A stretch of 64,000 nt of DNA from a virus (IMGVR_UViG_3300021957_000009:37047-101046), one strand, 5' to 3'. Counted from the stretch's first letter, positions 13,915 through 63,570 are shown. Made by a program: numbers and translations. The notes: generated from the letters alone by a model not told the origin.

Positions 13915-14232
13915 TTATTTTTTCTTTTTTTCGAGTTTCTCGATTCGTGCGATGAGTTCTGGGTATACTTCGAACTCGTGTAGTTCCTTGCAAGGATGTG
14001 AACACTTTTCAACTTCATCTAATCTCTGCGCAGCAAGGGGATACTGCTTTCTAAACTTAGCGTCTTTCTTAGCAAGTTCAAGGTCGTACTTTTCTGCAAA
14101 GTGTTGCATAAATCTGTCTACTTGTTTTTGAAACCAAATGCCGCCAGTTGTGCCCTGAAACCAGTTATAGAATGATGATCCTATAACTGAACTAAGAATA
14201 GATTTTAATGATAGTATGAGTAGAAAGTACAT
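13915..14232 (-). CDS. Hypothetical protein with hydrophobic N-terminus
   Basis: ORF coupled to lipase stop. Confidence 0.65.
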   Translation of the reverse strand: MYFLLILSLKSILSSVIGSSFYNWFQGTTGGIWFQKQVDRFMQHFAEKYDLELAKKDAKFRKQYPLAAQRLDEVEKCSHPCKELHEFEVYPELIARIEKLEKKKK

Positions 14233-14984
14233 TACTTTTCCTTAGCAAGCTTTTTAATAGCTTTAACGTAGTTAGGCATTCCATGATCTACAACTCCATC
14301 AAAGAATTTCCATCTTTTCCAAGAGTTAAGAATACCATAGAATGTATCAGTCCAAGTTGGCTTAAGTTGCTTATCACCAAATCTATTAAAGTAAATCATT
14401 TGACCGTGATGTCTAAATCCTAACCATGCAGGTGGGATTCTACATACGATATCGTTATTATTCATAAATCTATAATGATCTGCATTTATGTTTTTGATGA
14501 AGTGTTTACCACCGACTCTTGGTGAACCGAATGTAAATAACTCTTCTGGAGTATAACGAGTTGTAGCAATAGTGGCCATAGCTGCACCTAAAGAATGTCC
14601 AGTAAAGTATACGTCTTTTCTTACTTTTAACTGGTCATTATGATCAAGTTCTTTTACAATGTCCATCCATACGTCATCGACTTCTTCTTGGAATCCACCG
14701 TGAACTTTACCACCGGCTTTTGCAGTGTTTTTAATCACCTTTAAATCTGCTAATACATCATTTAGCTTAGAAGGTTCTGTTCCTCTAAAAGCAAACCATA
14801 GATCATTTCTATCCTTTGCGATGAGTACTTCAGCACCATCTCTACTAATAATTTTACCTGACGCAAATCCTAATTTTTTACAGGCAGTGTCAGCCGGCTT
14901 AGGATTCATATAGGCAATTGCTGATAGCTTTGCTGCTACTTCTGCTCTTTCCCATACCGTCATATCATCTTTCATTCTACTCAT
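14232..14984 (-). CDS. Class 3 lipase (alpha/beta hydrolase)
   Basis: AFRGTE, VHGGF, GHSLG, FGSPRVG, DIV, DH motifs. Confidence 0.9.
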   Translation of the reverse strand: MSRMKDDMTVWERAEVAAKLSAIAYMNPKPADTACKKLGFASGKIISRDGAEVLIAKDRNDLWFAFRGTEPSKLNDVLADLKVIKNTAKAGGKVHGGFQEEVDDVWMDIVKELDHNDQLKVRKDVYFTGHSLGAAMATIATTRYTPEELFTFGSPRVGGKHFIKNINADHYRFMNNNDIVCRIPPAWLGFRHHGQMIYFNRFGDKQLKPTWTDTFYGILNSWKRWKFFDGVVDHGMPNYVKAIKKLAKEK

Positions 14985-15474
14985 TTTCTTTCTCCACTTT
15001 AATTTCCACTGCTCCGCCATCTTCATCATTTATTGTCACGTTCCTATAGTAAACTATCACCTCACCGAGCTGATTAATATATCTTTTTATTTCTTGCGTA
15101 TTATAAGACATTAGCTCATAATCAGCAACACTCATGGCAACAAAAACAATATCGCCTCCGTGTTTCTTTTTAATATCATCGATAAATCTATCGAGATATG
15201 TATACCCTTCAGGGTACAAATCTTCTCTACCTAATTTACAGTTTGATTTTTTAGTTTCAGGATCCTTAAGACAATTCTCAATTATTTTTGTATCTGAAAC
15301 TACATACCATTTAGGTTCTTTTAAATCAATTGCTCTTGGCATCACAGGCTGAACAATATCTATTTTTACTGGTTTTGTTATAATCTCAACTTCTCTTGGA
15401 GCCTGCTGTAATAGACTACAACCACTAATCGTTAAGAGAGCTAATACGCTGACTATCTGCTTCAATCGCATCAA
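14977..15474 (-). CDS. Putative outer-membrane spanin (Rz1-like lipoprotein)
   Basis: Signal peptide with ISGC lipobox, Pro-containing linker, C-terminal helix; overlaps i-spanin candidate. Confidence 0.65.
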   Translation of the reverse strand: MMRLKQIVSVLALLTISGCSLLQQAPREVEIITKPVKIDIVQPVMPRAIDLKEPKWYVVSDTKIIENCLKDPETKKSNCKLGREDLYPEGYTYLDRFIDDIKKKHGGDIVFVAMSVADYELMSYNTQEIKRYINQLGEVIVYYRNVTINDEDGGAVEIKVEKENE

Positions 15475-15818: not shown

Positions 15819-16127
15819 CTACAATCTTTCTATATCTACACCAAGAACTTTTAATACTACTTTACGTATTTTTTTATCATCTGTTCCCCAATGTTTACTG
15901 TATGAGTTAAACCTAATAGAATCTCTCCTAATATCTAAATCTTTACCATTAACATCATATCCGGCCTGTTTAAATGCCTTTTCAACGTCATATCCGTGTG
16001 CGCCATTTCTAAGCTTAAGTTCCATACCACCGGATCTCCAGTACCTAAAGTCATTTTTACTAAACTTATAAGCTTCGGTAATCTCTTCTTTAGACAGTTC
16101 TTCTTTTAATTGTTCAAACGTTTTCAT
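15819..16127 (-). CDS. Putative internal head protein (CTS-like start)
   Basis: MKTFEQLKE...ITE|A. Confidence 0.65.
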   Translation of the reverse strand: MKTFEQLKEELSKEEITEAYKFSKNDFRYWRSGGMELKLRNGAHGYDVEKAFKQAGYDVNGKDLDIRRDSIRFNSYSKHWGTDDKKIRKVVLKVLGVDIERL

Positions 16128-16129
16128 AG

Positions 16130-16540
16130 TTATTCCTTTATCTTATACTTTTTAATAAGTATTTCTTTAGCCTGATGCATCGCCATATTTGCAGCATCTG
16201 TATTCTTTATTGTATCAAAGATGATATCGCCGCCACCGTAATCAAAGAACCTTTCAACATCTCTTAGACTTTTAATTCTGTCTTTCTTAAAAGCTTTTTC
16301 AAGAGAAGGCATAACCTTTTTTACATCAGAGTTTACACTTTCTTTAACTTCTTTTTTAGCCTCAGCAGCTTTTCTTCTGTTTAAAATTCTTTCAACGAAT
16401 CGTCTTCCGGCTTTAGTTCTACCATCATAGACTGTTTTGCTTTTCTTTTTCTTATCGTGCACTGCATCAGATGGCATTGATACACCACCAGCTCCTACTG
16501 AATTAGCTGCGTCTTCCCATACATCTTTAAATGTTTTCAT
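16130..16540 (-). CDS. Putative internal head protein (CTS-like start)
   Basis: MKTFKDVWE|D; DGRTK motif. Confidence 0.65.
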   Translation of the reverse strand: MKTFKDVWEDAANSVGAGGVSMPSDAVHDKKKKSKTVYDGRTKAGRRFVERILNRRKAAEAKKEVKESVNSDVKKVMPSLEKAFKKDRIKSLRDVERFFDYGGGDIIFDTIKNTDAANMAMHQAKEILIKKYKIKE

Positions 16541-17133
16541 CTTTTTATATCCGCACTCGTTATGAGTATTTGTTGTTTAGTTAAAACATGTTCTACTTGA
16601 TACACGTTTAAACCAAAAATAGAACCGCTAGGTTCTGTAAAATCTAGTACGCTTACCATACTATTTATATGTGCAATCACTTCAGCCGTTTGTGGAGATG
16701 CAATATCTTGCACTAATTTATATTTCCCTGGAGCGAGTTTGTTATCTTTCTCAAACCATGCCGCGCTTTCAGACAAATCAATGTTTTCATCAAAGTCACC
16801 AAATATATCATTCAGCATTGTTTGTAGCTCAACGTCTTGTAATCCTGTTTCTTCTTTAACTAAAAATAAAGCAGAAGCGTATGTTGCTAGCTTAGTGCCT
16901 AATGTTCCAGGCACTTTATTCAACAATCTTTTAATGTTAAACACTAATCTATGGAAAATAGTAAAGGCCGATTTTTCCTGAGGTGTTTTACGGTCAACTT
17001 TTTTCTTAAGTATCTTTCCGTTTCCGTCAATGATACCAAGCCTATAAGCTTCCATATTTTCCCAAGGTGTTACTAATAGCTTTAGAAACCTAAAGGCATA
17101 GAATAAATCACCTGTTCTCGAGATTACTCCCAT
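16537..17133 (-). CDS. Conserved T4-like hypothetical protein
   Basis: YAFRFLKLLVTPW..AYRLGIID..GK and FHRLVFNIKRLL motifs. Confidence 0.75.
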   Translation of the reverse strand: MGVISRTGDLFYAFRFLKLLVTPWENMEAYRLGIIDGNGKILKKKVDRKTPQEKSAFTIFHRLVFNIKRLLNKVPGTLGTKLATYASALFLVKEETGLQDVELQTMLNDIFGDFDENIDLSESAAWFEKDNKLAPGKYKLVQDIASPQTAEVIAHINSMVSVLDFTEPSGSIFGLNVYQVEHVLTKQQILITSADIKR

Positions 17134-17504
17134 TAAATTTTCCTCAGTCTCTCTATTACGTTTGTGTCTAAAGGTATTTCAACCTTATAATCTTCTGGCA
17201 AATAATTTAAGAAAACTAAAAATGTCTTTAGTTGAGAATAATGCTCGGGTTCTATTTTAAACCACATCATTCTGTTAGCAGCTTTAATACCAAATACATT
17301 ATACAAAACTATAATGTGGTTTAATATAAGCCTTTCTTGCAAATCGCCGTGTTGTTCATAACGTCTAAGTAATCTTTTAAGATACTTAAACCTTGTTAAA
17401 TCTTCTTTGAACTCTTCGACCTCAATACATTCCGGGTTATTGTAATGTTGAGATGCGAAGAGTTCAAAGTTCCTACTAGTCAAAGTGTCAAATATTTTCA
17501 TCAT
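17133..17504 (-). CDS. Conserved T4-like hypothetical protein
   Basis: HYNNP..EEF.EDL.RFKYLKRL..LILNHIIVLYNVFG motif. Confidence 0.8.
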   Translation of the reverse strand: MMKIFDTLTSRNFELFASQHYNNPECIEVEEFKEDLTRFKYLKRLLRRYEQHGDLQERLILNHIIVLYNVFGIKAANRMMWFKIEPEHYSQLKTFLVFLNYLPEDYKVEIPLDTNVIERLRKI

Positions 17505-17525
17505 ATATTATCTATAAAAGATATT

Positions 17526-18698
17526 TTAGCTATATTCTTTCTGCAACTCTTTGAATGTTTTACCTTCAAATCCCATAAAGTCTTGGAAATATTTAACTAG
17601 AGCTTTTTCATCACCGGTAAATATACCAGCATCTGAACCCATCATTCCGTCACCTTTACCTTTTTTAAATGAAACTTTAATCTTCATCTTTTTAGCAGCT
17701 TTGTCACCACCAACGTTTTTCATTTCATCTGAGTCAAAAGATGTTCTGATTTGAGCTTCTGCAATAGTTTCTTCTTTAACTGATTCATCTTTATCACTTT
17801 CGTTATCAGCTTCATAGTTCTTATCAACGTAATCAAAGAATTCTTTCTTTTTATCGCCTTTAAGCTGAGCTGGAGAATCTACTCCAAATTTCTTAAGAGC
17901 AGACTTAAAGAATTTCTGATATCTTTCTTTATCTTCTTGCATCTTAGACTTAGCTTCGTTCATAGCGTGAGCTTCAGTTACTACTTCTTCAGTAACTTCT
18001 TCATTTGCCATTTGTAAAGCAGCTTTTACTTCTGGGTCGTCAGATAAACCTTTTTTCATCTTTTCGATTTTGTTAACAGCACCAGTCATATTACCACCCA
18101 TCTTTAATGCAGTGTCGGTAGCTTTTTTCAATAAAGCTTTTGAAAACTTAGACTTAGCTTCCATTAATTCTGGAAAAAAGTCTTCAATATCTTCTGGATC
18201 CATATCGTAATCTTTTGATTGCAGATACGCCAAAATGTCTTTCTTTTGACCAGAAATATCGTATCCATCTCTTGTTTGCTTAAACTTAATTTTGAATTTT
18301 TTTGATGCCGCAGGAATTCCATCACCTGTATGATCAACATCAATTTTAGCTTTACCTTTACCAGCTTTTAGTTTAGCTTCGTCAAGAGTAATGGTTACTT
18401 CTTCTTTAACCACAGAACCATCTTCTTTAGCGCCTGATTTTTTAACAGTATGCTTAGCTTTAAATTCTTTTTCGCCTTTTGCTTTTGGCTCAGCAACTTC
18501 GTCAACTTCAGGCTTTTCGTGTGTATAACCTTTATCAGCAAGTGCTTTATGTTCGGCTTCGTCTTTAGCTACTTCTTTTTTACCTGTTTCAGGATGGAAC
18601 ATATCGTGTGGATATTTTCCCTCTTCTTTTACTTTACCTTCAAGTACATCGCTAACGGTTTCAGCAATGCTTAAAGTTGTGTTATCTTTAAGTTTCAT
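17526..18698 (-). CDS. Lys/Glu-rich multi-module putative internal head protein
   Basis: Many [LIVM]xE|A junctions; internally repeated module. Confidence 0.65.
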   Translation of the reverse strand: MKLKDNTTLSIAETVSDVLEGKVKEEGKYPHDMFHPETGKKEVAKDEAEHKALADKGYTHEKPEVDEVAEPKAKGEKEFKAKHTVKKSGAKEDGSVVKEEVTITLDEAKLKAGKGKAKIDVDHTGDGIPAASKKFKIKFKQTRDGYDISGQKKDILAYLQSKDYDMDPEDIEDFFPELMEAKSKFSKALLKKATDTALKMGGNMTGAVNKIEKMKKGLSDDPEVKAALQMANEEVTEEVVTEAHAMNEAKSKMQEDKERYQKFFKSALKKFGVDSPAQLKGDKKKEFFDYVDKNYEADNESDKDESVKEETIAEAQIRTSFDSDEMKNVGGDKAAKKMKIKVSFKKGKGDGMMGSDAGIFTGDEKALVKYFQDFMGFEGKTFKELQKEYS

Positions 18699-18708
18699 AT
18701 TTTTTCTC

Positions 18709-19008
18709 CTAAGTTATGAAAAACATTCCTGTAATTGCTGTGGCTGCGCCTGCGATTACTATCCAGAATAATTTATTTATTACGTTTACAGTTTGTGCAT
18801 TCTCACGCACAAGTATTTCTAATCTATCAACTCTATTTATAAGAGTTAGTATCTGTTCTCCTTGTTGTTTACCGAATTCGGCCATTGTTGCAATTCTCTC
18901 TTCAGCTCTTGCTAATGAGATTATTACATCTGACATCCTATCGATTTTTTCTTCGATTCGATCAAGTCTTGCGGCTTGTTCTAATCTTTGCTCAGCTGCA
19001 CTAGCCAT
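18709..19008 (-). CDS. Coiled-coil protein with C-terminal TM helix
   Basis: RLDRIEEKID heptads, hydrophobic C-terminus; AGGA RBS. Confidence 0.7.
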   Translation of the reverse strand: MASAAEQRLEQAARLDRIEEKIDRMSDVIISLARAEERIATMAEFGKQQGEQILTLINRVDRLEILVRENAQTVNVINKLFWIVIAGAATAITGMFFIT

Positions 19009-19273
19009 AGTTACATATCCTACATTTAAGCGGGGTTGCACCCTTGATTAATCTATGATATTCTTCTTTCTTAATTCTGAACACCATACCTTTTTTGAGA
19101 AGCCACGGCAAACAATCCTGTAATTGAAACTGCCAGCCTTCGCCTTCTAAAATTTCTATTTCTCGGTCATCTTCATCACGATGCCATACGTATTCACGAT
19201 CTTCTTTCGAAAGATCGAATTCTCTTATCGCACCGTCTTCCCAGTACGGTTTACCAAAAGTAAGATCCACCAC
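19001..19273 (-). CDS. Small cupin-like protein (GTG start approximate)
   Basis: WHRD.DDR.IE and YHRLIKG motifs. Confidence 0.6.
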   Translation of the reverse strand: MVDLTFGKPYWEDGAIREFDLSKEDREYVWHRDEDDREIEILEGEGWQFQLQDCLPWLLKKGMVFRIKKEEYHRLIKGATPLKCRICNYG

Positions 19274-19622
19274 CTTTAAGCCCCAAGTCTTTGGCGTATT
19301 TAGGCAATCTACATGCCCAATACCCCGGTTTAGTTTTATCAGTCTTAGTATCACAATTATGACGTGATGCAAAATTCCTTGCTGCATCTCTATCATTAAT
19401 TTTAGATGTAAGGCCACCCTTTTCGTCACCAAATTCGATCTTTTTCACATTACCCGTTTTAGGATTTTTTACATAAACCACATACTTCTTTTTACCGCTA
19501 GATCGTTTCGGTTTATTTAACTCTTGATCTTCATCAATTTCAATCATAGGTTGTTCTAAAGGTACATGTTGACCTTCGTATAAACCAAATCTTTCTTCAA
19601 TGTGTTCTAAAAAACTATGCAT
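19251..19622 (-). CDS. Conserved phage protein with CTS-like start
   Basis: MHSFLEHIEE; KKYVVYVKNP..FGD..FASRHNC..GYWAC motif. Confidence 0.75.
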   Translation of the reverse strand: MHSFLEHIEERFGLYEGQHVPLEQPMIEIDEDQELNKPKRSSGKKKYVVYVKNPKTGNVKKIEFGDEKGGLTSKINDRDAARNFASRHNCDTKTDKTKPGYWACRLPKYAKDLGLKGGGSYFW

Positions 19623-20074
19623 TATTTACCCTTAATAGTCCTTACAACTTTACTTAATATCATTTTAACAGCAGTGTAGTATGCAAATCCATGACCCCAT
19701 ACTATATGAAATGTGTGGTTCTTTTCAATTGCTGATTTACCGCCAAACTTCTTAGTCCAGTTATCTACGTATTCGCCTTTATATCTCAATACCGCGTGTG
19801 ATACTTTCCACTTACTAGGACCTACTAAGCATATACCGGCTTGATGCGTCAATAACATCCACCACATTTTAAGATGGCTTTCACCGCATAATCTATAGAG
19901 AATAGAAAGAGAATAGTCTTCACAATCGCCTACAAGCTTTCCTTCAGCGTCTTCTGAGTAAATAATTTTCCATGCATCAGCCATACCGTATTGTTCTTTA
20001 TCGTATCGATATTTCCACTTACTGTTAAATGATGATACAATTTTATCCCTCGCTTTTACTTCTTCTCTATTCAT
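19622..20074 (-). CDS. Transglutaminase-like cysteine proteinase
   Basis: GDCEDYS, HAVL, DN (Cys-His-Asp). Confidence 0.75.
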   Translation of the reverse strand: MNREEVKARDKIVSSFNSKWKYRYDKEQYGMADAWKIIYSEDAEGKLVGDCEDYSLSILYRLCGESHLKMWWMLLTHQAGICLVGPSKWKVSHAVLRYKGEYVDNWTKKFGGKSAIEKNHTFHIVWGHGFAYYTAVKMILSKVVRTIKGK

Positions 20075-20562
20075 TTAACACCTCTTAATTTTTTTATACC
20101 TTTCTCTACCTCTTTATATGCTGAATCTAATTCTTTTTTTGCTTGAGCGATCTTGGCTTTGTTTAATGCTTTTTCATCAGCAGAAATTTCACCCAGTCTT
20201 TTACGTTCAGCTTCAATTCTTGATCTTGCGTCAAACAAATCTTCTTTAGACATTCTCAATTGAGTTAATCTATCTGCCTTTTTTATAGCTTTAGCTCTTT
20301 TACGATCTGCTACCGCTTGCTTAGAAAAATATTGTTGTAGTCCTTTACCACCTTTAACCGCACCTTTAGCACCAAGCTTAGCTACTATAGATCCATATTT
20401 AAATAGACCTTTTGTTGCTTTAATGCCTTGATCAACTACAAAATTAAGTGCTGAATCTGCGGCACCTTCATTCATATCTAATTGCATATTAGCTTCATGC
20501 AATGGCATGTCACATATTTCTTCTAGTGTCTTGGCTTCTACGTGTTCAGCAAATGTTCTCAT
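20071..20562 (-). CDS. Putative internal head protein (CTS-like start)
   Basis: MRTFAEHVE|A; basic helical C-terminus. Confidence 0.65.
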   Translation of the reverse strand: MRTFAEHVEAKTLEEICDMPLHEANMQLDMNEGAADSALNFVVDQGIKATKGLFKYGSIVAKLGAKGAVKGGKGLQQYFSKQAVADRKRAKAIKKADRLTQLRMSKEDLFDARSRIEAERKRLGEISADEKALNKAKIAQAKKELDSAYKEVEKGIKKLRGVK

Positions 20563-21233
20563 TTTTGTCCTTTTATCCATTTTACAGCAATGGAATTTTC
20601 TGGGGCTTTAGCAGCCCAGGTTTTTATATCTTTATACGCTTCTAATGTTGAGGCTTCTATATCAGAACCTTTAGAATTATCAATAACAATCATGCGGTTA
20701 CGAAAAAGGCCTTGAAACTTACCTATATTCTTTTGTACATCTTTCCACATTTTTGTTACTAAACTATCTTCTAGAGAACGTGGTCTCATTCTGTTTCTTT
20801 CCAATGCTGTATCCAAATCAGTGTTAACAAATAACATATGTACAGCATAACCAAGTGTTCTTAACAGATCAACTTGCTTTTTAATTTTAGCATAATCTTT
20901 ACCAGTACCATCAACAACAATGCCCATTCTACCTTCTAAAGCTCTAGTCATAATTTTACCAGTTAGAACTTTCGCTTTCGCTCTTACTGCTTGGCCCTGT
21001 GCAGATGCAATGTCATCAGCATCAGTAGTTAATCCAGCCCTTTTTAATCCTTTTTCAAAAGCATCATCAGAGTTAATTAATCTAAATCCTAATGCTTGTA
21101 AGGCAGTTTTACCTACAACAAATGATTTACCAGAACCTGGTCCACCTGCTAGGAATACTGCTTTAAAAATAGAAGGATCATTTACACCTTCCATAAGTTC
21201 TAAATGTTCTTTAAAATTATCCACCGAATTCAT
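20559..21233 (-). CDS. P-loop kinase (zeta/AAA_33/PNK-like) with CTS-like start
   Basis: GGPGSGKS, NSDD, VVDGT, ALERNRMRPR lid. Confidence 0.8.
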   Translation of the reverse strand: MNSVDNFKEHLELMEGVNDPSIFKAVFLAGGPGSGKSFVVGKTALQALGFRLINSDDAFEKGLKRAGLTTDADDIASAQGQAVRAKAKVLTGKIMTRALEGRMGIVVDGTGKDYAKIKKQVDLLRTLGYAVHMLFVNTDLDTALERNRMRPRSLEDSLVTKMWKDVQKNIGKFQGLFRNRMIVIDNSKGSDIEASTLEAYKDIKTWAAKAPENSIAVKWIKGQK

Positions 21234-21906
21234 GTCCTGCGACTCTCTTCATTTGCTTTTTAAATTCAGCAAAATCTGGTTTACTTTTGTAAAGTTTAAT
21301 AGATATCTCATCTCTATCTTTACCCTTAATTCTCCACTTATAACCTTTATCTAAATGTTCTGGCTTTGTGGTCTTTACTACTCTACGCTTAAATCCATCT
21401 TCCCAAGGCTCACTCTTACCTGTACCTTCTTCTAACTCTTCTTTCTTAGTTGTTAGTTTTTTACCTATAGACTTAATATCTAGAGATTTTAATTTTAATT
21501 TTTTACCACTACTCATTTTTAGTGCTTTAGCATAAATTTCTTTTGCTTTAGACTTATTCTTAACTGCTAAAACGCTTATCAATATAGTGCCTAGTGTTAC
21601 AGTTCCTACAGCAACCGCTTTACTAAATATTAAAGTTGCAGTCTTGGCCGATATCTCAACGCCTATCCATTTACCAACATCCATAATTAAACCAATACCG
21701 TATCTTTGTAGTTCAATTATTGCGTTTAAATCATATTTTTTTGCAATATTATAAATTACGGTTCCTTTTATAAAACCCTTCATACTCAAAGGAGGTCCAG
21801 CTAGCTTTGCTATTTCCTTACCAATCTTTAAAGCGACAGGTAAAATAAAGTTATAGGCCTCATCCAGATCCTGTTCATATAAAGAATGTTCCGCAAAAGT
21901 TTTCAT
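21217..21906 (-). CDS. Putative internal head protein (CTS-like start) with hydrophobic segment
   Basis: MKTFAEH..LDE|A; second module after LEE|G. Confidence 0.65.
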   Translation of the reverse strand: MKTFAEHSLYEQDLDEAYNFILPVALKIGKEIAKLAGPPLSMKGFIKGTVIYNIAKKYDLNAIIELQRYGIGLIMDVGKWIGVEISAKTATLIFSKAVAVGTVTLGTILISVLAVKNKSKAKEIYAKALKMSSGKKLKLKSLDIKSIGKKLTTKKEELEEGTGKSEPWEDGFKRRVVKTTKPEHLDKGYKWRIKGKDRDEISIKLYKSKPDFAEFKKQMKRVAGHEFGG

Positions 21907-22250
21907 TTCTTTAAGTCGTACCTAAATGATTTGCCTTTAGCTTGGCCGTCTTTAGTAACTTTAAACCTACCAATACGAGCTAGGTTATTTACGGTTTCAA
22001 GATTTCCCTTCTTCATTTGCTTTTCTAATTCAGGCTTTACTTTCTTCCATATAGTTTCTAATATATCTTTATCAGACATAACAAGCGGGGCTTCACTTAA
22101 GTTATCTTCATTCTGAAGCCTATAAGCTTTTTGCTTAACTCTAAAGGCCATCTTTTTCTTTAACTGATCTTGTGACAGTTTTTTCTTTTTGGCATTAGAA
22201 ACGGTCTGCTTAGCAGATTTTTTTGCTTCTTGAATGTCTGAAAATTTCAT
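21903..22250 (-). CDS. Putative internal head protein (CTS-like start)
   Basis: MKFSDIQE|A; LSE|A. Confidence 0.65.
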   Translation of the reverse strand: MKFSDIQEAKKSAKQTVSNAKKKKLSQDQLKKKMAFRVKQKAYRLQNEDNLSEAPLVMSDKDILETIWKKVKPELEKQMKKGNLETVNNLARIGRFKVTKDGQAKGKSFRYDLKK

Positions 22251-22251
22251 A

Positions 22252-22776
22252 TTAATCCCTTGGTGTAGGCTTAGCTAATATAGATCTAGCTTTTGATTTA
22301 TCGTTTTTAAGTAAAGTTGCTGCATCTTGTAAATATCCTTCGGTCTCTCCGTACTTAAGTTTTCTCCAAGATTTACCATCTTCATGTGCAAGGTATTTGG
22401 CTATTCTTAATCCGTCAAAGGCACCACCGTCATTAGCAGTATATCTTCCTTCCCTGAGTTTACCACTAGCAAGGTCATCAAGGTTTTTATCTAACCAATT
22501 AATAAATTCGTCTTCTTCTTTTCCACGAATCTCACCAGCATCTACTGCCCAACGCTCTAGTTCACGCGTTGCTTTATTAGATAATTCTAATTGACCTGTT
22601 TTTACTGCCTTTTGAAGTTCTTTTTTATACTTACGAGCTATGTCTTGAATTTTCTTAGCTTCTTCAACTGTTTCTTCAGGTACACAGTTTGGAACGTCTT
22701 TTCCGCCCTTCTTTTTCGTACCTACTTGCTTATACCCTTTCCAACAAGCCTCTCTAACATCTTTAAATGTTTTCAT
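22252..22776 (-). CDS. Putative internal head protein (CTS-like start)
   Basis: MKTFKDVRE|ACWKGY..G.K.K.GK.VPNCVP module. Confidence 0.7.
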   Translation of the reverse strand: MKTFKDVREACWKGYKQVGTKKKGGKDVPNCVPEETVEEAKKIQDIARKYKKELQKAVKTGQLELSNKATRELERWAVDAGEIRGKEEDEFINWLDKNLDDLASGKLREGRYTANDGGAFDGLRIAKYLAHEDGKSWRKLKYGETEGYLQDAATLLKNDKSKARSILAKPTPRD

Positions 22777-23027
22777 TTTACTCTTTTTCCCTTTTTCAAG
22801 ACAGCCATTGCATCTCTCTTATCCATTGCCATACTATTTTTATCTACTAGCCACGCTAAAAGATCTTTGACATTTCCTGACACTTTAATAGTAGCATTTT
22901 TTCTGTCCCATCGATCTAGGTAAACACCGACATCTTGGAAATCGCCTTGATATTCCCTAGGATCATCCATGTCCCAATTAACTTCTATCTGCTTATTTGC
23001 TTCTCTTATTTCTTGAAATGTTTTCAC
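22773..23027 (-). CDS. Putative internal head protein (CTS-like start)
   Basis: MKTFQEIRE|A, close to T4 IP MKTYQEFIAE. Confidence 0.7.
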   Translation of the reverse strand: MKTFQEIREANKQIEVNWDMDDPREYQGDFQDVGVYLDRWDRKNATIKVSGNVKDLLAWLVDKNSMAMDKRDAMAVLKKGKRVK

Positions 23028-23028
23028 T

Positions 23029-23442
23029 TTACTTTTTTTCCTTAGACATCATTGCTGCTATCTTCATCAAAGTTTCTTTATCCTTATCTGAAATTTTATC
23101 TAATTGTTTTTTCTTGGCAATAGCTTCTAACGACTTTGCCCATGAAGCTGAAGATTCTTCAACAGACTCTTTCTTAACCGCCTTTGAACTATTTTTGTTA
23201 ATGAAATCAGCTGATTTATTTTGAGCACCACGATCGCCACCTCTAGCATATCCATCTAAATATGCTTGAGCATGAGCTTCGGCGTGCTTAGGTGATTTCC
23301 AGCCAACTGATCCAAGGTACATCACTTTACCAGTTTTTTTGTTTTTAACTTCAGCTCGATAACCGCCGAATTTAGACTTTTCTGACCCTACAACATATTC
23401 TGCTGGATCAAATCTCTCTCTTAATTCTGTAAATTTTTTCAT
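23029..23442 (-). CDS. Putative internal head protein (CTS-like start)
   Basis: MKKFTELRE|R; VEE|S. Confidence 0.65.
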   Translation of the reverse strand: MKKFTELRERFDPAEYVVGSEKSKFGGYRAEVKNKKTGKVMYLGSVGWKSPKHAEAHAQAYLDGYARGGDRGAQNKSADFINKNSSKAVKKESVEESSASWAKSLEAIAKKKQLDKISDKDKETLMKIAAMMSKEKK

Positions 23443-23443
23443 T

Positions 23444-24625
23444 TTATCCCCTTACTTTAGCAGCTAGGTCTTTATCAGCCCCGCCCCATGTTCCTTTTGA
23501 TTTTGTTGCGAATGAATTAACTCGCGCTAATCCCCATTGAGTCGGATTTGTTCCTGGTCTATGGCTTGAACTCCAAGCCGCATATCCTCTATCAAATACC
23601 TTTTTTAATATACCATAAGGCATACCTGTTTTATCGGCCTTTTTCATAAGTGCCGCCTTTGCATCGGCTTCTTCTAATGATTGTGAGAAGCTTTTCATTT
23701 CACCAAACTTCTTTTTAAAATCTTTTGTGTGATCACTTTCTGGAGCATTTGGTCTTGGCTTATTGTGTGCTGCTTTTTCTTTTGCATTCATATCAGAATA
23801 TTTCTTCTCTTCTAAATGCTCAACATCATCAAGCCAAACTCTTTTCTTCCAATCTCCAAACTCGACTACTAAAAAGTTAGTGCCGCATCTTTGTATAACA
23901 CCAACTTGATTTGTTTCTTTAAGAACAACTTCGTCACCCTGTTTAAATAGATTGCCTTTAACAAACTTTTCTCTTTTCTCAGAGACCTTTTCTAATTCAA
24001 TATGCTTACGTACTGATTCTTTTTTAAGACCCATGCCTTTACGTAATGCATAATATAATTTTTGTATACCATCTCCTGGTATTTCTAAAGAGTTATCAGC
24101 AAATCCTTGTAAATCACCAGATGCAACAAAGGCTCTTAGTTTAGATGCTGACATACCTGAAACACCTTCTGCATCAGGATCACGTTCTCCGGCCGAAATA
24201 ACTTTGATTCCATCTTCGAAATTATAAAAACCATGACGAGCTTTTTGGCCATTATACTTATTTAACAATGTCTCAAATTCTTTAACTCGATCACTACCAG
24301 CAACCATAGAAACTTTAGTATATCCTTGATCATACAATTTTACTGCAATATCAATTACTGTTCTAACATCGGCATCTGCCATAATATTTCGAGCATGCTT
24401 AGGAAACATTTTACGCATAAACTTAATTTTTTCTTTAAACGTAAGAGGATTCTTTTTAGCATCTTGCGACTTAGACGCGTATATACGATATGAACCGCCT
24501 GAAACTTTTTTAAGTTTTTCAAAAAGCTTTTCATGGCCGGTAGTAGGAGGATTAAATCTACCAAAGACAAAGGTCATTTCACCCTTTGCTTCAGTCAGAT
24601 AATCACTGAAACTTTTAAACTGCAT
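23444..24625 (-). CDS. HxGH (cytidylyltransferase-like) nucleotidyltransferase with extra C-terminal modules
   Basis: FGRFNPPTTGH, AGSDR, SAGERDPD, MSASKLR; FKSFSDYLTE|A start. Confidence 0.85.
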   Translation of the reverse strand: MQFKSFSDYLTEAKGEMTFVFGRFNPPTTGHEKLFEKLKKVSGGSYRIYASKSQDAKKNPLTFKEKIKFMRKMFPKHARNIMADADVRTVIDIAVKLYDQGYTKVSMVAGSDRVKEFETLLNKYNGQKARHGFYNFEDGIKVISAGERDPDAEGVSGMSASKLRAFVASGDLQGFADNSLEIPGDGIQKLYYALRKGMGLKKESVRKHIELEKVSEKREKFVKGNLFKQGDEVVLKETNQVGVIQRCGTNFLVVEFGDWKKRVWLDDVEHLEEKKYSDMNAKEKAAHNKPRPNAPESDHTKDFKKKFGEMKSFSQSLEEADAKAALMKKADKTGMPYGILKKVFDRGYAAWSSSHRPGTNPTQWGLARVNSFATKSKGTWGGADKDLAAKVRG

Positions 24626-25008
24626 TATTCACCGCCCTTGCTTTTCAATTTTGCTCTATCTTTCTTTTTAATTCCAGGAAGAAGCTTCTTGGCTATTTTT
24701 GCAATCGCGCCTTTTTTGTTGGCTAGTTTCTTTTCTATACCGGCACGTGCGGAAAATGATAGGTCACTTTTCTTTTTATTTTTGAGGAGTTTTTTAATGA
24801 GTAATTCTCTAGCAGCCTTATTTGCTCTAGATTTTAACTTTTCCGGGGATGCTAACTTCTTGGCTGCTTTCTTTTTGCCAAGTGCGATTTTAGCTTTGTT
24901 TTTTCGAAATGCAGCTTTCATCTTCATACGATGTTGAAGTGACATGGCTTCTGAAAAGTCTACGCTTTCTTCAGATATGTCTGCATTGTGTTCTTTGAAC
25001 GATTTCAT
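24625..25008 (-). CDS. Highly basic putative internal/DNA-binding protein (CTS-like start)
   Basis: MKSFKEH...FSE|A; Lys-rich; GAGG RBS. Confidence 0.7.
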   Translation of the reverse strand: MKSFKEHNADISEESVDFSEAMSLQHRMKMKAAFRKNKAKIALGKKKAAKKLASPEKLKSRANKAARELLIKKLLKNKKKSDLSFSARAGIEKKLANKKGAIAKIAKKLLPGIKKKDRAKLKSKGGE

Positions 25009-25026
25009 CTTATCCTCGGTTCCCAT

Positions 25027-26268
25027 TTAGTTAGGATTATCCCAACCTTTAATTATATCTTTGCTAAAGTTGTTAGTAGAAAATTCTAATCTATCAACAA
25101 GCTTAACAGCTCCACCTTCCATACGATCTATAGCAACAAAACCTTCGGGGTTGGTTACTTTAAATCCGGACTTAGTCTTTACAAACGTACTAATTTTATT
25201 TAGTTTGTTTAGTTTATTTATAATAATTAATTTGCTATCTGTTACTAAATTATGTAAATCGAACACATTTTGTAGGTTTTTTATATTAGATTTGTCAAAA
25301 AATGCGAGTAATTGATCTCTTTTAGCTATCTGAACATCTTTACCCTTTTGACTGCTTCTCTTGTCAATTTCTTTTTGATACCGTGCATTTACCCACATTA
25401 CTAAACCTGTTGCATGTTTCTTAGTATCAGTAATGCGTTGTCCGTCCCTTACTTTACTATTGTTATAAACATTAATCATAAGATTTAGTTCTTTATTAGA
25501 TTCTATTTCTTTAAGAGTTGAAGCTGATATTTTTCGAAATAGTTTACCAGCATCAGAAAGCTTTTTATTTAGTGCATCTGTTTCTGACTTGGTTAGTGTT
25601 GCGGTTCCTGATAGATCATCTAATGTTGCATCTTGCATCCATACATCTTTAGAAGATCTAAGCTTGGTGACAATTTCTCTACCAAACTCAGCTCTCATCG
25701 TTTCGAACGTTGCTCCTGAGTAGGTTGTATGCCAAACAATTCCGATCTTAGCTGATCCAATCGTCTTAGCGAGAGCACTACCAGTAGGTACTGCGTAAGC
25801 GATAGTGTTAGGATGAAACACAATATGACTAACTCCATTTATATTCTCCTTTTTAAGGTCCGACTTATCAAACATAAAGTCGCCTTGTATAACACCTTTA
25901 ATTCCTAAAGGCTTAAGATAATCATATGCCATTTTTAATTTTTTAGATAGATCTCCACTTGTATCAGCATCTATATCTGCGTGTGATTTATATACTTTTG
26001 GGTCGGCATTAAATATGCCTTTTTTTGCTACGAAGAATTGACCATCACGTGGATCTTCTCCTGCAAATACGGCGGGGGCACCGTCCCACTTTACGGTTAC
26101 GTCTACTGCAGCTTTCGTATTACCGGATAACATATCTCGCAACGACCTGAGTGCGATGATAGCTTGGCGCGCCCCCTTAACTCCGCCGTCAATGATAAGA
26201 TCCTCGATATGAATCATATGAGTGTTCTTTCCTGCGGCTTCTGATAATTGATTTTTAAATGATTTCAT
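25027..26268 (-). CDS. Conserved T4-like protein with ligase-superfamily nucleotidyltransferase-like motifs
   Basis: TVKWDG, QGDFMF, PEGFVA, VKLV; MKSFKNQLSE|A start. Confidence 0.65.
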   Translation of the reverse strand: MKSFKNQLSEAAGKNTHMIHIEDLIIDGGVKGARQAIIALRSLRDMLSGNTKAAVDVTVKWDGAPAVFAGEDPRDGQFFVAKKGIFNADPKVYKSHADIDADTSGDLSKKLKMAYDYLKPLGIKGVIQGDFMFDKSDLKKENINGVSHIVFHPNTIAYAVPTGSALAKTIGSAKIGIVWHTTYSGATFETMRAEFGREIVTKLRSSKDVWMQDATLDDLSGTATLTKSETDALNKKLSDAGKLFRKISASTLKEIESNKELNLMINVYNNSKVRDGQRITDTKKHATGLVMWVNARYQKEIDKRSSQKGKDVQIAKRDQLLAFFDKSNIKNLQNVFDLHNLVTDSKLIIINKLNKLNKISTFVKTKSGFKVTNPEGFVAIDRMEGGAVKLVDRLEFSTNNFSKDIIKGWDNPN

Positions 26269-27542
26269 TTTAAGTACTCGTCGTAGTCTTCTGGATCGAT
26301 ACCAGCAAATGATACTGCACCACTTACTGCTCTTTTTTCACCTTCTTTTACACCGAAGGTTACAATAGTTTTTCCGGTGGGCCCTTTAATATTTAAAGTG
26401 ACTCTTCCTTTTGGATTTTCTAATGTAATATTATCCATATCCAAGTCCGGATGTTTAGCTATAATTTGGCTTTTCTTTTCTGTTGTAATTGCCATTAACA
26501 TTTTTGTTTCTTTATCGTTAAAACCCATAATGTTTAAAATGTTTGTAGAAAACTCTTTAGTTTTAGAATATGGTTTTAGTACTTCATACACAATAGCAGC
26601 AACTCTAGGATTTATCGGCTCTCGTGCAGCCTTTCTTTCTGTTTCAATTTGCTTTTGATCTAGTGCTTCTATTTGAGAGTCGGTCAAACCGCGCAAGCTT
26701 TTTAATCTGTTTGTGGCTTTTTCATCGCCTCGGAGGTGTTGCTTATGATCTTGTTTAATTTTATTAAGATCATTTGCTTTTTGGACTAGTTGGTTTAATT
26801 CAGAATCTCTTTTATAAACCGAATCAAATTCTTTAGCAGCTTTGTCACCAACCAGGTGATCGCACAATCCTCTCGCTGTTGTATTTGCTAAGCCAACTGA
26901 TTTAGATGAATAGAGTTTTAGTGAATAACCATCAAGAATTTGTTTACCTTCTTTCATAACAGCAACTCTAATATCTGCTTTGAAATCTATTCCGTCTTGA
27001 AATGCTAGGTTGTCTAGATAACAACCAATGATAGTTGCCTTTTCTAATACTGCATTTGAGATAAGATAGTTTGCCATATCGGCACTACCCTTTCTAATAA
27101 TTTTAATTGCAGAACTATAATTTTTTGGATTGAGCGCACGCTTTAATTGTGCATCCCAATCAGAAACTGTTTTATTAATACCACTTCTATATTTTTCGTA
27201 ATCTTTACTAATTGCAACCTGAGAACCACTATAATCGTATATGAATTTGCAGACTAAAGCTTCGTTGTAATTACCTTTAATTGCTGATAAAGCTCCGGTA
27301 TTTTCTGCTATAGTAAAACCATTCATAGTGATATCCTCTTTAATCTGTGACGGTATTGAAATCACAGTAGGTTCAAATAATTCAGCGGCTTTTAGTTTTT
27401 TCTTAAACTGTCCTCGAATCTTAGATTTTAACGATGTCCAAACGGCTTTTAATTTTCTAATTAAAGGTTTAGCAATTTTTAATTCGTTAATAAACCGGTC
27501 TTCACCGGCCTGAAGTTCTAGTTTTAATGGTAATAGTTGCAT
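26265..27542 (-). CDS. Hypothetical protein, possible PD-(D/E)xK-like nuclease
   Basis: GNYNE, KADI, GYSLK spacing. Confidence 0.5.
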   Translation of the reverse strand: MQLLPLKLELQAGEDRFINELKIAKPLIRKLKAVWTSLKSKIRGQFKKKLKAAELFEPTVISIPSQIKEDITMNGFTIAENTGALSAIKGNYNEALVCKFIYDYSGSQVAISKDYEKYRSGINKTVSDWDAQLKRALNPKNYSSAIKIIRKGSADMANYLISNAVLEKATIIGCYLDNLAFQDGIDFKADIRVAVMKEGKQILDGYSLKLYSSKSVGLANTTARGLCDHLVGDKAAKEFDSVYKRDSELNQLVQKANDLNKIKQDHKQHLRGDEKATNRLKSLRGLTDSQIEALDQKQIETERKAAREPINPRVAAIVYEVLKPYSKTKEFSTNILNIMGFNDKETKMLMAITTEKKSQIIAKHPDLDMDNITLENPKGRVTLNIKGPTGKTIVTFGVKEGEKRAVSGAVSFAGIDPEDYDEYLK

Positions 27543-27575: not shown

Positions 27576-27583
27576 TATTTATA
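27576..27583 (-). promoter_or_regulatory. Late promoter TATAAATA heading the internal-protein block
   Basis: Exact consensus upstream of 27542. Confidence 0.8.
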
Positions 27584-61145: not shown

Positions 61146-61799
61146 TTAAGAATTTACAAGTTTAGAGAGGAAATTTTTAAAAGCTTTAATCTCTACATCA
61201 GATGATCTCATGTTTCGAGCTTCCTTGATTTCAGTCTCAATTTTCTCAACTTCTTGTGGGCAAAGTACACCATTATTCCATACCCAATCAACACCTTCCA
61301 TAATTCCATTGACAAATGCCTCTGGAGCTGAAGGATCCTGAACGATATCTACGGTAGACAACATAAAGTCATCTTTCACATACATAGTGCCATTTTTTTG
61401 CACAAGACTTCCCATACCACGACTTGATACACCAAGCTTAACGCCACCTTCGAGAAGACCTTTTACGATCTGTCCCATAGGGGTTTCTAAGATTGATGCC
61501 TTTCCAATAACATTACTTCCGTCAAATTTGAGTTCAGTAATCTTATGTGAAACTTTATCTAAGTTAATAGTAGGACCTTCAGGGTGGTTTAATTCCCCAA
61601 CGGCTCTACCTTGACTTACTTGTTCTTTTACATATTTGTTAACTGCATTTTCTAAAATGCTCTTTTCATATATCCGGCCATTTCTATTCTTGGCATCGGC
61701 TTGCATGAAAACACCCTCTATGCAAAGGGTCTTTTTACCGTTAACTTTCTCTTCAATAACCTCTAGGTTATTGTCGTTATATTCTGCTATAAGTTTCAT
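61146..61799 (-). CDS. 21: Prohead protease gp21
   Basis: NRNGRIY, GELNHP, GVSSRGMGS, DPSAP. Confidence 0.95.
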   Translation of the reverse strand: MKLIAEYNDNNLEVIEEKVNGKKTLCIEGVFMQADAKNRNGRIYEKSILENAVNKYVKEQVSQGRAVGELNHPEGPTINLDKVSHKITELKFDGSNVIGKASILETPMGQIVKGLLEGGVKLGVSSRGMGSLVQKNGTMYVKDDFMLSTVDIVQDPSAPEAFVNGIMEGVDWVWNNGVLCPQEVEKIETEIKEARNMRSSDVEIKAFKNFLSKLVNS

Positions 61800-63562: not shown

Positions 63563-63570
63563 TATTTATA
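63563..63570 (-). promoter_or_regulatory. Late promoter TATAAATA followed by GC-rich leader hairpin (63533-63553)
   Basis: Exact consensus; GAGGGGAG/CTCCCCTC stem without T-tract. Confidence 0.75.

Follow-up and report, generated by a model that had tools for sequence, protein, structure and literature searches.

Predicted Ligase-fold Protein, HIGH-type Nucleotidyltransferase and Pnk-like Kinase with T4-type Leader Sequences in a Marine T4-like Myovirus: Candidate Head-delivered Enzymes

Introduction

The internal proteins of bacteriophage T4 are loaded into the scaffolding core by a capsid targeting sequence (CTS) (PMC3012670), and in the T4 record the products of ipII and ipIII both start with MKTYQEFIAE. 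A related idea is that of the polyvalent proteins (Iyer et al. 2017, PMC5512222), multi-domain enzymes that are predicted to be packaged and to be cleaved into modules that are carried in along with the DNA. These two concepts are the closest that have been described to the system considered here, a block of genes in a marine T4-like myovirus that encodes a ligase-like protein of family DUF6267, a nucleotidyltransferase of the HIGH superfamily, and a P-loop kinase. The sequence analyzed, referred to as the window, comprises 64 kb at the right-hand end of an IMG/VR virus record of 101 kb (IMGVR_UViG_3300021957_000009:37047-101046). A first-pass annotation of the window had proposed that the three enzymes form a virion-delivered kit that repairs RNA or DNA ends or rebuilds a cofactor such as nicotinamide adenine dinucleotide (NAD).

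The sequence comparisons and structure predictions described below suggest that in this lineage the enzymes are probably packaged in the head and injected. It is a more tentative proposal that they act on nucleic-acid ends, and the complete scheme, in which an end healing and sealing set is delivered from the head as part of an 11-kb late block of head-internal (ejected) proteins, should be regarded with similar reserve.

Results

T4-type Leaders and the Prohead Protease

The three enzyme open reading frames (ORFs) were confirmed on the minus strand, and each begins, as the first-pass annotation had supposed, with a leader of the T4 type (Table 1). They are part of a larger group, since at least 13 ORFs in the 11-kb block between 15.8 and 26.3 kb start with a T4-like leader ending in (L/I/V)xE. 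A loose form of the leader pattern is found in 13 of the 20 ORFs in the block compared with 5 of 67 elsewhere in the window (Fisher p = 4e-7), where the matches are mostly internal alternative starts. For comparison with relatives, a set of 80 viral loci containing DUF6267 was used, 62 of which include at least 1.5 kb of downstream sequence. In these loci, a strict form of the pattern is present in 150 of 1486 coding-strand ORFs and in none of the 1147 ORFs on the opposite strand. The leader is located ahead of the conserved core in nearly all homologues of the transferase and is present in all 5 stand-alone homologues of the kinase and in 59 of the 77 DUF6267 homologues; in the kinase, it ends in LME directly before the conserved sequence G-x-N-D-P-x-I-F. 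The leaders can be assigned to the CTS type, being similar to MKTYQEFIAE, ending in (L/I)xE, and occurring in a genome that encodes a gp21-type protease, for which the expected cleavage site is directly after (L/I/V)xE.

Detection of the Transferase in Cyanophage Virions

Orthologues of the transferase have been detected in the virions of three cyanophages. In purified S-SM1 virions, 25 peptide counts were obtained for the protein and 18 for the portal (PMC3037559). Virions of S-SZBM1 (PMC9146016) contain it as well, as do those of S-CREM2, whose authors suggest that it is encapsidated (PMC10665884). DUF6267, however, does not appear in the protein lists of five cyanophage virion proteomes, including those of these three phages. 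In S-SZBM1, S-CAM9, and P-TIM40, DUF6267 starts with MAKNTHLEHLEDD and has no leader, whereas the adjoining transferase starts with MRFRQFIIEA or MRFLDFIKEA. The leader therefore tracks detection in the virion, which supports its proposed role. At the same time, the absence of DUF6267 from both leader-bearing and virion-listed proteins of cyanophages indicates that its action is not dependent on virion delivery, and the cyanophage protein evidently works without being packaged. The earlier suggestion that the proteins are present in virions is thus upheld in cyanophages for the transferase orthologue but not for DUF6267.

It might be argued from these observations that the leaders do not signify delivery and that the proteins are passengers of the scaffold core that are degraded or expelled at maturation, or have an N terminus that serves translation or another role, the enzymes being cytoplasmic and late. 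The omission of DUF6267 from the cyanophage lists is in keeping with this, as is its conservation in cyanophages without a leader, and to our knowledge the function of such leaders has been tested experimentally only in T4. Nevertheless, this explanation is very unlikely when set against the three proteomes that contain the leader-bearing transferase, in one of them at a higher peptide count than the portal, and the complete lack of the pattern in opposite-strand ORFs. In addition, (L/I/V)xE recurs at internal junctions of polyproteins, as described below, and this cannot be explained by translation initiation.

Structural Model of the DUF6267 Protein

The first-pass annotation had recognized ligase motifs I, III, IV, and V, in that order, in the DUF6267 protein, and had proposed structure prediction as a check. 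Both the motifs, VKWDG (K60), QGDFMF (D130), PEGFVA (E375-G376), and AVKLVDR (K389), and a ligase-type fold are borne out by the present analysis. The residues K60, D62, G63, D130, E375, G376, and K389 are invariant in 108 diverse homologues that have a mean column identity of 36%, and the motifs are therefore not due to chance. Motif I, K60-W-D62-G63, has the KxDG form that in the covalent (lysine) nucleotidyltransferases, the ATP/NAD+ ligases and capping enzymes, contains the nucleophilic lysine. In the AlphaFold2 model generated from the 108-sequence alignment (pLDDT 94.1, pTM 0.91), motifs III, IIIa, IV, and V are located in order on β-strands, as in ligases, D130 on 126-134, F151/N154/Y158 on 146-161, E375-G376 on 376-381, and K389 on 386-390; a helical insert of ∼130 residues separates motifs IIIa and IV, and leader residues 1-12 are disordered. 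The protein has no OB domain with motif VI such as is present in DNA ligases and capping enzymes, motif V being followed by only ∼20 residues that form one helix, and in having no OB domain it resembles the RNA ligases.

Comparison of the model with known structures by VIA-align, a method independent of Foldseek, gave as the closest match an RNA ligase from Naegleria (5cot, Z 8.5, 186 residues, rmsd 3.8), followed by T4 Rnl2 (2hvq and 1s68, Z 7.9), fungal Trl1 (Z 7.9 and 7.8), T4 Rnl1 (Z 7.0), and REL1 (Z 6.7). After the RNA ligases come numerous DNA ligases at Z 6-7. In the BFVD library of viral structures, members of the DUF6267 family come first and the later named matches are mostly phage and giant-virus RNA ligases, so that RNA ligases lead in two independent structure libraries. 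A Foldseek search of the Protein Data Bank (PDB) gave weak matches (E 0.1), with DNA ligases first, and a search of the ESM Atlas found unnamed viral clusters only. At the level of sequence, there is no significant match to any ligase among Pfam, NCBIfam, or PDB profiles, and an hhalign comparison of the DUF6267 profile with T4 Rnl2 was not significant (0.1% probability), pairing only PEGFVA with AEGYVL.

The model shows DUF6267 to be, as far as a predicted structure allows, a ligase-type lysine nucleotidyltransferase domain without an OB domain, closest to the ATP-dependent RNA ligases. Because the likeness to RNA ligases is one of fold but not of sequence or profile, the protein is classified as ligase-fold and RNA-ligase-like, without being assigned to any of the named Rnl families. 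DUF6267 and its transferase partner are very common; over 8000 clusters (90% identity) were scored, and an E value of 0.001 or better was reached by 2624 representatives at 50% identity. A literature search on DUF6267 and on DUF5824, a domain of the transferase, found no paper.

The HIGH-type Transferase and the Pnk-like Kinase

The transferase had been predicted to carry an HxGH motif and was found to have the TxGH variant, in the sequence GRFNPPTTGH. It passes the Pfam CTP_transf_like model (PF01467) with 23.5 bits relative to a cut-off of 21 and also matches DUF5824 (PF19141). Its membership of the HIGH superfamily, which is marked by a Rossmann-like fold with (H/T)xGH following strand 1 and by a C-terminal S-x-x-x-x-R motif, is indicated by the invariance of G22, R23, N25, P26, P27, T28, G30, and H31 and of S159, K162, and R164, which belong to the S-x-x-x-x-R motif. 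The AlphaFold2 model (pLDDT 83.5) has three domains, nucleotidyltransferase (residues 15-200), a small β-barrel (225-270), and the helical DUF5824 (313-393). Foldseek matches the first domain to PPAT (1od6, E 2e-5) and to nicotinic acid mononucleotide (NaMN) and nicotinamide mononucleotide (NMN) adenylyltransferases, all with probability 1.0, and there are weak local matches to the NadR NMNAT model (E 5.7e-5) and to plant NMNAT. Single-sequence and profile searches of PDB sequences produced no meaningful match for the transferase or for DUF6267. A TagD-like cytidylyltransferase was considered and rejected, as there are no cytidylyltransferases among the top Foldseek matches listed; it should be noted that the fold cannot tell nucleotide specificity.

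A second leader-like sequence, MKSFSQSLEE, is present within the transferase, in a linker before DUF5824 that is predicted with low confidence (pLDDT <50 at 307-316). It is likely to mark either a site of protease cleavage or the join left by an ancient fusion of genes; in related polyproteins, MIAE or VYE is found at the corresponding junction. Forms of the transferase of ∼327 residues that have no DUF5824 occur elsewhere and, together with the internal MKSFSQSLEE, make DUF5824 appear to be a module that was once separate and bore its own leader.

The third enzyme was correctly recognized by the first-pass annotation as a P-loop kinase (GGPGSGKS), matching Pfam AAA_33 and Zeta_toxin, and can be placed more specifically. 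When a profile built from nine homologues was compared with T4 Pnk, it aligned over 140 columns of the kinase domain (hhalign 94.7%, E 5.9e-8), pairing GGPGSGKS with GCPGSGKS, INSDD with INRDD (NSD56 with the T4 catalytic D35), and the Arg lid ERNRMRPRS with KRNSKRGTK; by this alignment it is shown to be a predicted kinase of the T4 Pnk 5′-kinase type. The weak matches in NCBIfam are to PSTK and Pnkp, and the Pfam scores of zeta-toxin-like small-molecule kinases are similar. The 3′-phosphatase domain of full-length T4 Pnk and Pnkp is missing from the protein, which stops after the kinase domain at 224 residues and leaves T4 residues 148-301 unmatched.

The resemblance of the transferase to PPAT and to the NaMN/NMN adenylyltransferases raises the question of whether the enzymes supply a cofactor. 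According to this explanation, the transferase would make NAD+, dephospho-CoA, or a related dinucleotide and the kinase would phosphorylate a precursor, as in NadR or CoA synthase; the product would be used by the ligase-like protein or other injected enzymes, so restoring a cofactor depleted by host defences. The local NMNAT matches fit such a role, and in the fusions of loci L031 and L041 the transferase precedes the kinase, which is also the order of NadR and CoA synthase. Automatic names assigned by JGI include [quoted passage not shown] and phage NAD+ salvage and head-packaged enzymes of NAD and ADP-ribose metabolism are known (PMC9503650). The fold of an obligate partner and the NadR-like order of fusion keep this explanation alive, but it is unlikely in view of the more detailed comparisons. 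The transferase scores 22.5 bits with the NadR model TIGR01526, whose cut-off is 341, and hhalign gives 3%, matching only around HxGH, whereas the kinase, so extensively alignable with T4 Pnk, aligns with E. coli NadR at the P-loop only (34%). Furthermore, most phages that have the transferase lack the kinase, what invariably accompanies the transferase is not a kinase but the ligase-like protein, and rebuilding a pool with a few dozen injected molecules would be inefficient. The suggestion that NAD is rebuilt is therefore sustained as regards the transferase fold but fails for both proteins as regards NadR, leaving it weakly supported.

Linkage and Fusions

In all 62 loci with enough downstream sequence, the transferase is encoded just downstream of DUF6267; the two are an obligate pair and are often fused. 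In Pelagibacter phage HTVC008M, the genes for the ligase-like protein, transferase, and kinase, whose products are among gp127, gp129, and gp130, are side by side; Melnitz and C48C1 are further cultured relatives with all three. Fusions connect the three families in different combinations, DUF6267 with transferase and DUF5824 (P0124), kinase with DUF6267 (P0123), and transferase with DUF6267 (P0223). Polyproteins of ∼700 residues consist of transferase, kinase, and DUF5824, with cleavage motifs of the (L/I/V)xE type at the joints (SVEE before G and MIAE before N), and hundreds of the longer homologues of the kinase include the transferase and DUF5824. A small block protein of 229 residues, encoded within 21217-23442, has a C-terminal module that in L031 and L046 forms part of the transferase-kinase polyprotein.

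Some long homologues of the kinase (P0394, P0430, and P0395) have ART-PolyVal and DUF3990, a Cu/Zn superoxide dismutase, or a sigma-70 region 4 domain, which suggests a wider pool of head-delivered modules. In S-PM2, a DUF6267-transferase fusion of 591 residues (BFVD A0A0M6VVW4) has a TM-score of 0.91 to the model; an older annotation of 390 residues as "cytitidyltransferase" overlaps part of it.

Organization of the Block

The features of the block and the prohead protease are summarized in Table 1. Nearly all genes of the window are on the minus strand, and the window includes T4-type replication and head genes, among them those for the gp21-type prohead protease and NrdA. A megablast search of GenBank phages with the region found no match, relatives being detectable at the protein level only; the nearest in culture are Phage C48C1, Methylophilales phage Melnitz, Stenotrophomonas phage DLP_6, and HTVC008M, followed by several hundred cyanomyoviruses.

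Table 1. Positions in the window of the genes and sequence elements discussed in the text
Feature	Position	Strand	Remarks
Late-promoter-like motif TATAAATA, T4-type	27576..27583	-	Just upstream of block; 34 nt 5′ of ATG 27542
First gene of block	26265..27542	-	Stop overlaps start of ligase-like gene
DUF6267 protein, predicted ligase-type nucleotidyltransferase domain, 413 aa	25027..26268	-	Pfam E 1.7e-102; leader MKSFKNQLSE = residues 1-10
Small lysine-rich protein, 127 aa, leader MKSFKEHNADISE	24625..25008	-	Between ligase-like gene and transferase
HIGH-superfamily (TxGH) nucleotidyltransferase, 393 aa, leader MQFKSFSDYLTE	23444..24625	-	Pfam PF01467 + PF19141
Internal leader-like stretch MKSFSQSLEE, transferase residues 310-319	23669..23698	-	Low-confidence linker before DUF5824
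Five small leader-bearing genes: MKKFTELRE, MKTFQEIRE, MKTFKDVRE, MKFSDIQE, MKTFAEHSLYE	21217..23442	-	
P-loop kinase, 224 aa, leader MNSVDNFKEHLELME	20559..21233	-	Pfam AAA_33, Zeta_toxin
Rest of block	15819..20562	-	Leader genes 20071-20562, 19251-19622, 17526-18698, 16130-16540, 15819-16127; few leaderless genes between
gp21-type prohead protease	ORF 61146..61799	-	PF03420, E 3.5e-43, G000:C1:98351-98785 = window 61305-61739

The motif TATAAATA occurs 15 times in the window, in every case on the minus (coding) strand. Several copies immediately precede head and tail genes, such as that at 63563-63570 before the portal gene, positions that fit T4-type late promoters. The first gene of the block has no match in Pfam, PHROG, or NCBIfam. 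Its true start is probably at 27326, where the ATG is preceded at 8 nt by AAGAGGA and would give the leader MNGFTIAE with the T4-like ending IAE. BLASTP gave no link between the 425-residue protein upstream of DUF6267 and its positional counterpart in HTVC008M, Melnitz, or cyanophages.

Among the leaderless genes, that at 19622-20074 (-), inside the block, has a weak match to Peptidase_C93, a transglutaminase-like cysteine protease family, that is below the cut-off (E 1.9e-4). Two further leaderless genes at 16537-17504 (-) encode a DUF7207 protein (E 5.9e-45) and a protein of 198 residues, a pair also seen downstream of the enzymes in 23 of the related loci. A class 3 lipase (Pfam E 1.1e-21), adjoining a predicted lipoprotein and a membrane protein, is encoded at 14232-15029 (-), between the leader block and NrdA.

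Discussion

The features of the block can be combined in the following scheme. The leader of ∼10 residues, like those of T4 internal proteins, would dock each protein into the prohead scaffolding core, and the gp21-type protease would then remove it after (L/I/V)xE and, in relatives that have fused polyproteins, would also cut between the modules. The mature enzymes would remain in the head until they pass into the cell together with the DNA, where most likely they would heal and seal polynucleotide breaks as soon as infection begins, playing the part of T4 Pnk and Rnl but loaded in advance. The kinase, where present, would phosphorylate 5′-OH ends and DUF6267 would seal them, while the transferase might supply or regenerate a nucleotide cofactor or activate a terminal phosphate. 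End healing and sealing is suggested because a Pnk-like kinase occurs with a protein of RNA-ligase-like fold.

A number of observations weigh against this scheme. With regard to delivery, it should be recognized that the virion data are for cyanophage orthologues and not for the source phage or a close relative, in addition to the leaderless and unlisted state of DUF6267 in those phages. With regard to sealing, motif III of DUF6267 has Asp where ligases usually have Glu, and the structural Z-scores are middling, 8.5 at best, so that the support is at the level of fold and is accompanied by no ligase match in sequence. With regard to healing, the kinase is sporadic, occurring in 8 of the 80 loci and missing from most relatives, and no 3′-phosphatase or cyclic phosphodiesterase (CPD) was recognized in the block, which would leave the healing step incomplete. 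The idea of a three-gene kit therefore holds for the ligase-like protein and transferase, and for all three through their fusions, but not for the kinase as a regular member. Finally, the nearest folds to the transferase belong to enzymes that make cofactors, and we know of no HIGH-type transferase in polynucleotide repair.

Packaged enzymes might instead have the DNA of the phage itself as their substrate, inside the head or close to it, and might for example seal or process nicks and ends of the packaged or entering genome, as opposed to RNA damage inflicted by the host. T4 Pnk-type kinases and some enzymes of the RNA ligase type also act on DNA. The small lysine-rich protein encoded between DUF6267 and the transferase, which has a homologue in the same position in 55 of the 80 loci and may be a DNA-binding internal protein, is consistent with this, and DUF6267 and the transferase are part of the core gene set of cyanophages, pelagiphages, and Methylophilales phages, a distribution that fits housekeeping better than a single counter-defence. 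T4 internal proteins are, in addition, embedded in the packaged DNA (PMC3012670). However, the structural neighbors of DUF6267 are RNA and not DNA ligases, no OB or DNA-binding domain was found in it, the cyanophage protein is not packaged, and we know of no evidence for nicked genomes in these phages. A role confined to the phage genome is on this account quite improbable, and the healing and sealing of ends by head-delivered enzymes continues to be the reading that we prefer.

The significance of the pair lies partly in its being so common among marine phages. Phage core gene T4-GC190, the cyanophage "cytidylyltransferase," is from the same family as the transferase described here; it is usually listed as an auxiliary metabolic gene and has been carried as such in the literature for 15 years despite recurring in virions. 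Its published interpretation is a TagD-like function in cell-wall metabolism, whereas the fold is nearer to those of adenylyltransferases (PPAT and NMNAT), and the leader and the ligase-like partner point to a head-internal enzyme. Head targeting, an adenylyltransferase-like fold, and a tie to a protein of ligase fold, in some cases to a Pnk-like kinase as well, provide a testable reading of a long-unexplained core pair. If the enzymes are injected, the T4 internal-protein idea would be extended from small inhibitors to catalytic first-response enzymes in viruses that are among the most numerous in the sea, and a new, structurally distinct branch would be added to the ligase superfamily. A far-reaching conjecture, to which we attach a low probability, is that abundant ocean myoviruses pre-load a protease-matured polynucleotide-repair set, the core of which is a hitherto unrecognized ligase family, DUF6267, that works only with a HIGH-type adenylyltransferase. 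This would represent a new two-enzyme ligation chemistry in which, for example, the transferase activates the terminal phosphate or recycles NMN to NAD+ for the ligase.

As compared with known enzymes of end repair, the locus is most similar to T4 Pnk with Rnl1/Rnl2 and to the fungal and plant Trl1 proteins (ligase-kinase-CPD), which likewise combine a Pnk-type 5′-kinase with an RNA-ligase-like lysine nucleotidyltransferase, and the kinase-ligase fusion P0123 corresponds to the arrangement in Trl1. The system differs in having no detectable Rnl homology, no 3′-phosphatase or CPD found, the ∼130-residue insert, and an obligate HIGH-type partner; also, T4 Pnk and Rnl are made early, whereas the enzymes described here are predicted to be pre-packaged. 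NadR (NMN adenylyltransferase with ribosylnicotinamide kinase) and CoA synthase (PPAT with dephospho-CoA kinase) share the HIGH fold and, like some of the relatives, have it fused upstream of a P-loop kinase. They are distinguished by the NadR score, which is far below the cut-off, by the T4 Pnk-like character of the kinase, and by the transferase having an added β-barrel and DUF5824 and being always accompanied by DUF6267.

With respect to packaging, IPI, IPII, IPIII, and Alt of T4 have the same leader pattern of ∼10 residues ending in (L/I/V)xE (MKTYQEFIAE in T4 compared with MKSFKNQLSE and MKTFQEIRE here), and the two systems also have in common a gp21-type protease and scaffold in the genome, late-promoter-like signals, and a set of genes that varies between relatives. 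However, the T4 internal proteins number 3 or 4, as compared with at least 13 leader-bearing genes here, and the T4 cargo consists of small inhibitors or an ADP-ribosyltransferase instead of a ligase-like enzyme, a HIGH-type transferase, and a Pnk-like kinase; relatives of this phage also string modules into polyproteins that have a cleavage motif at the joints. In the last respect they approach the polyvalent proteins, and some homologues of the kinase are fused to ART-PolyVal and DUF3990. The survey of those proteins (PMC5512222) does not mention zeta-type kinases, cyanophages, or this transferase, and the ligases that it refers to in passing are unrelated T4-type RNA ligases. The modules in the present block differ from polyvalent proteins in being mostly separate genes, each with its own leader.

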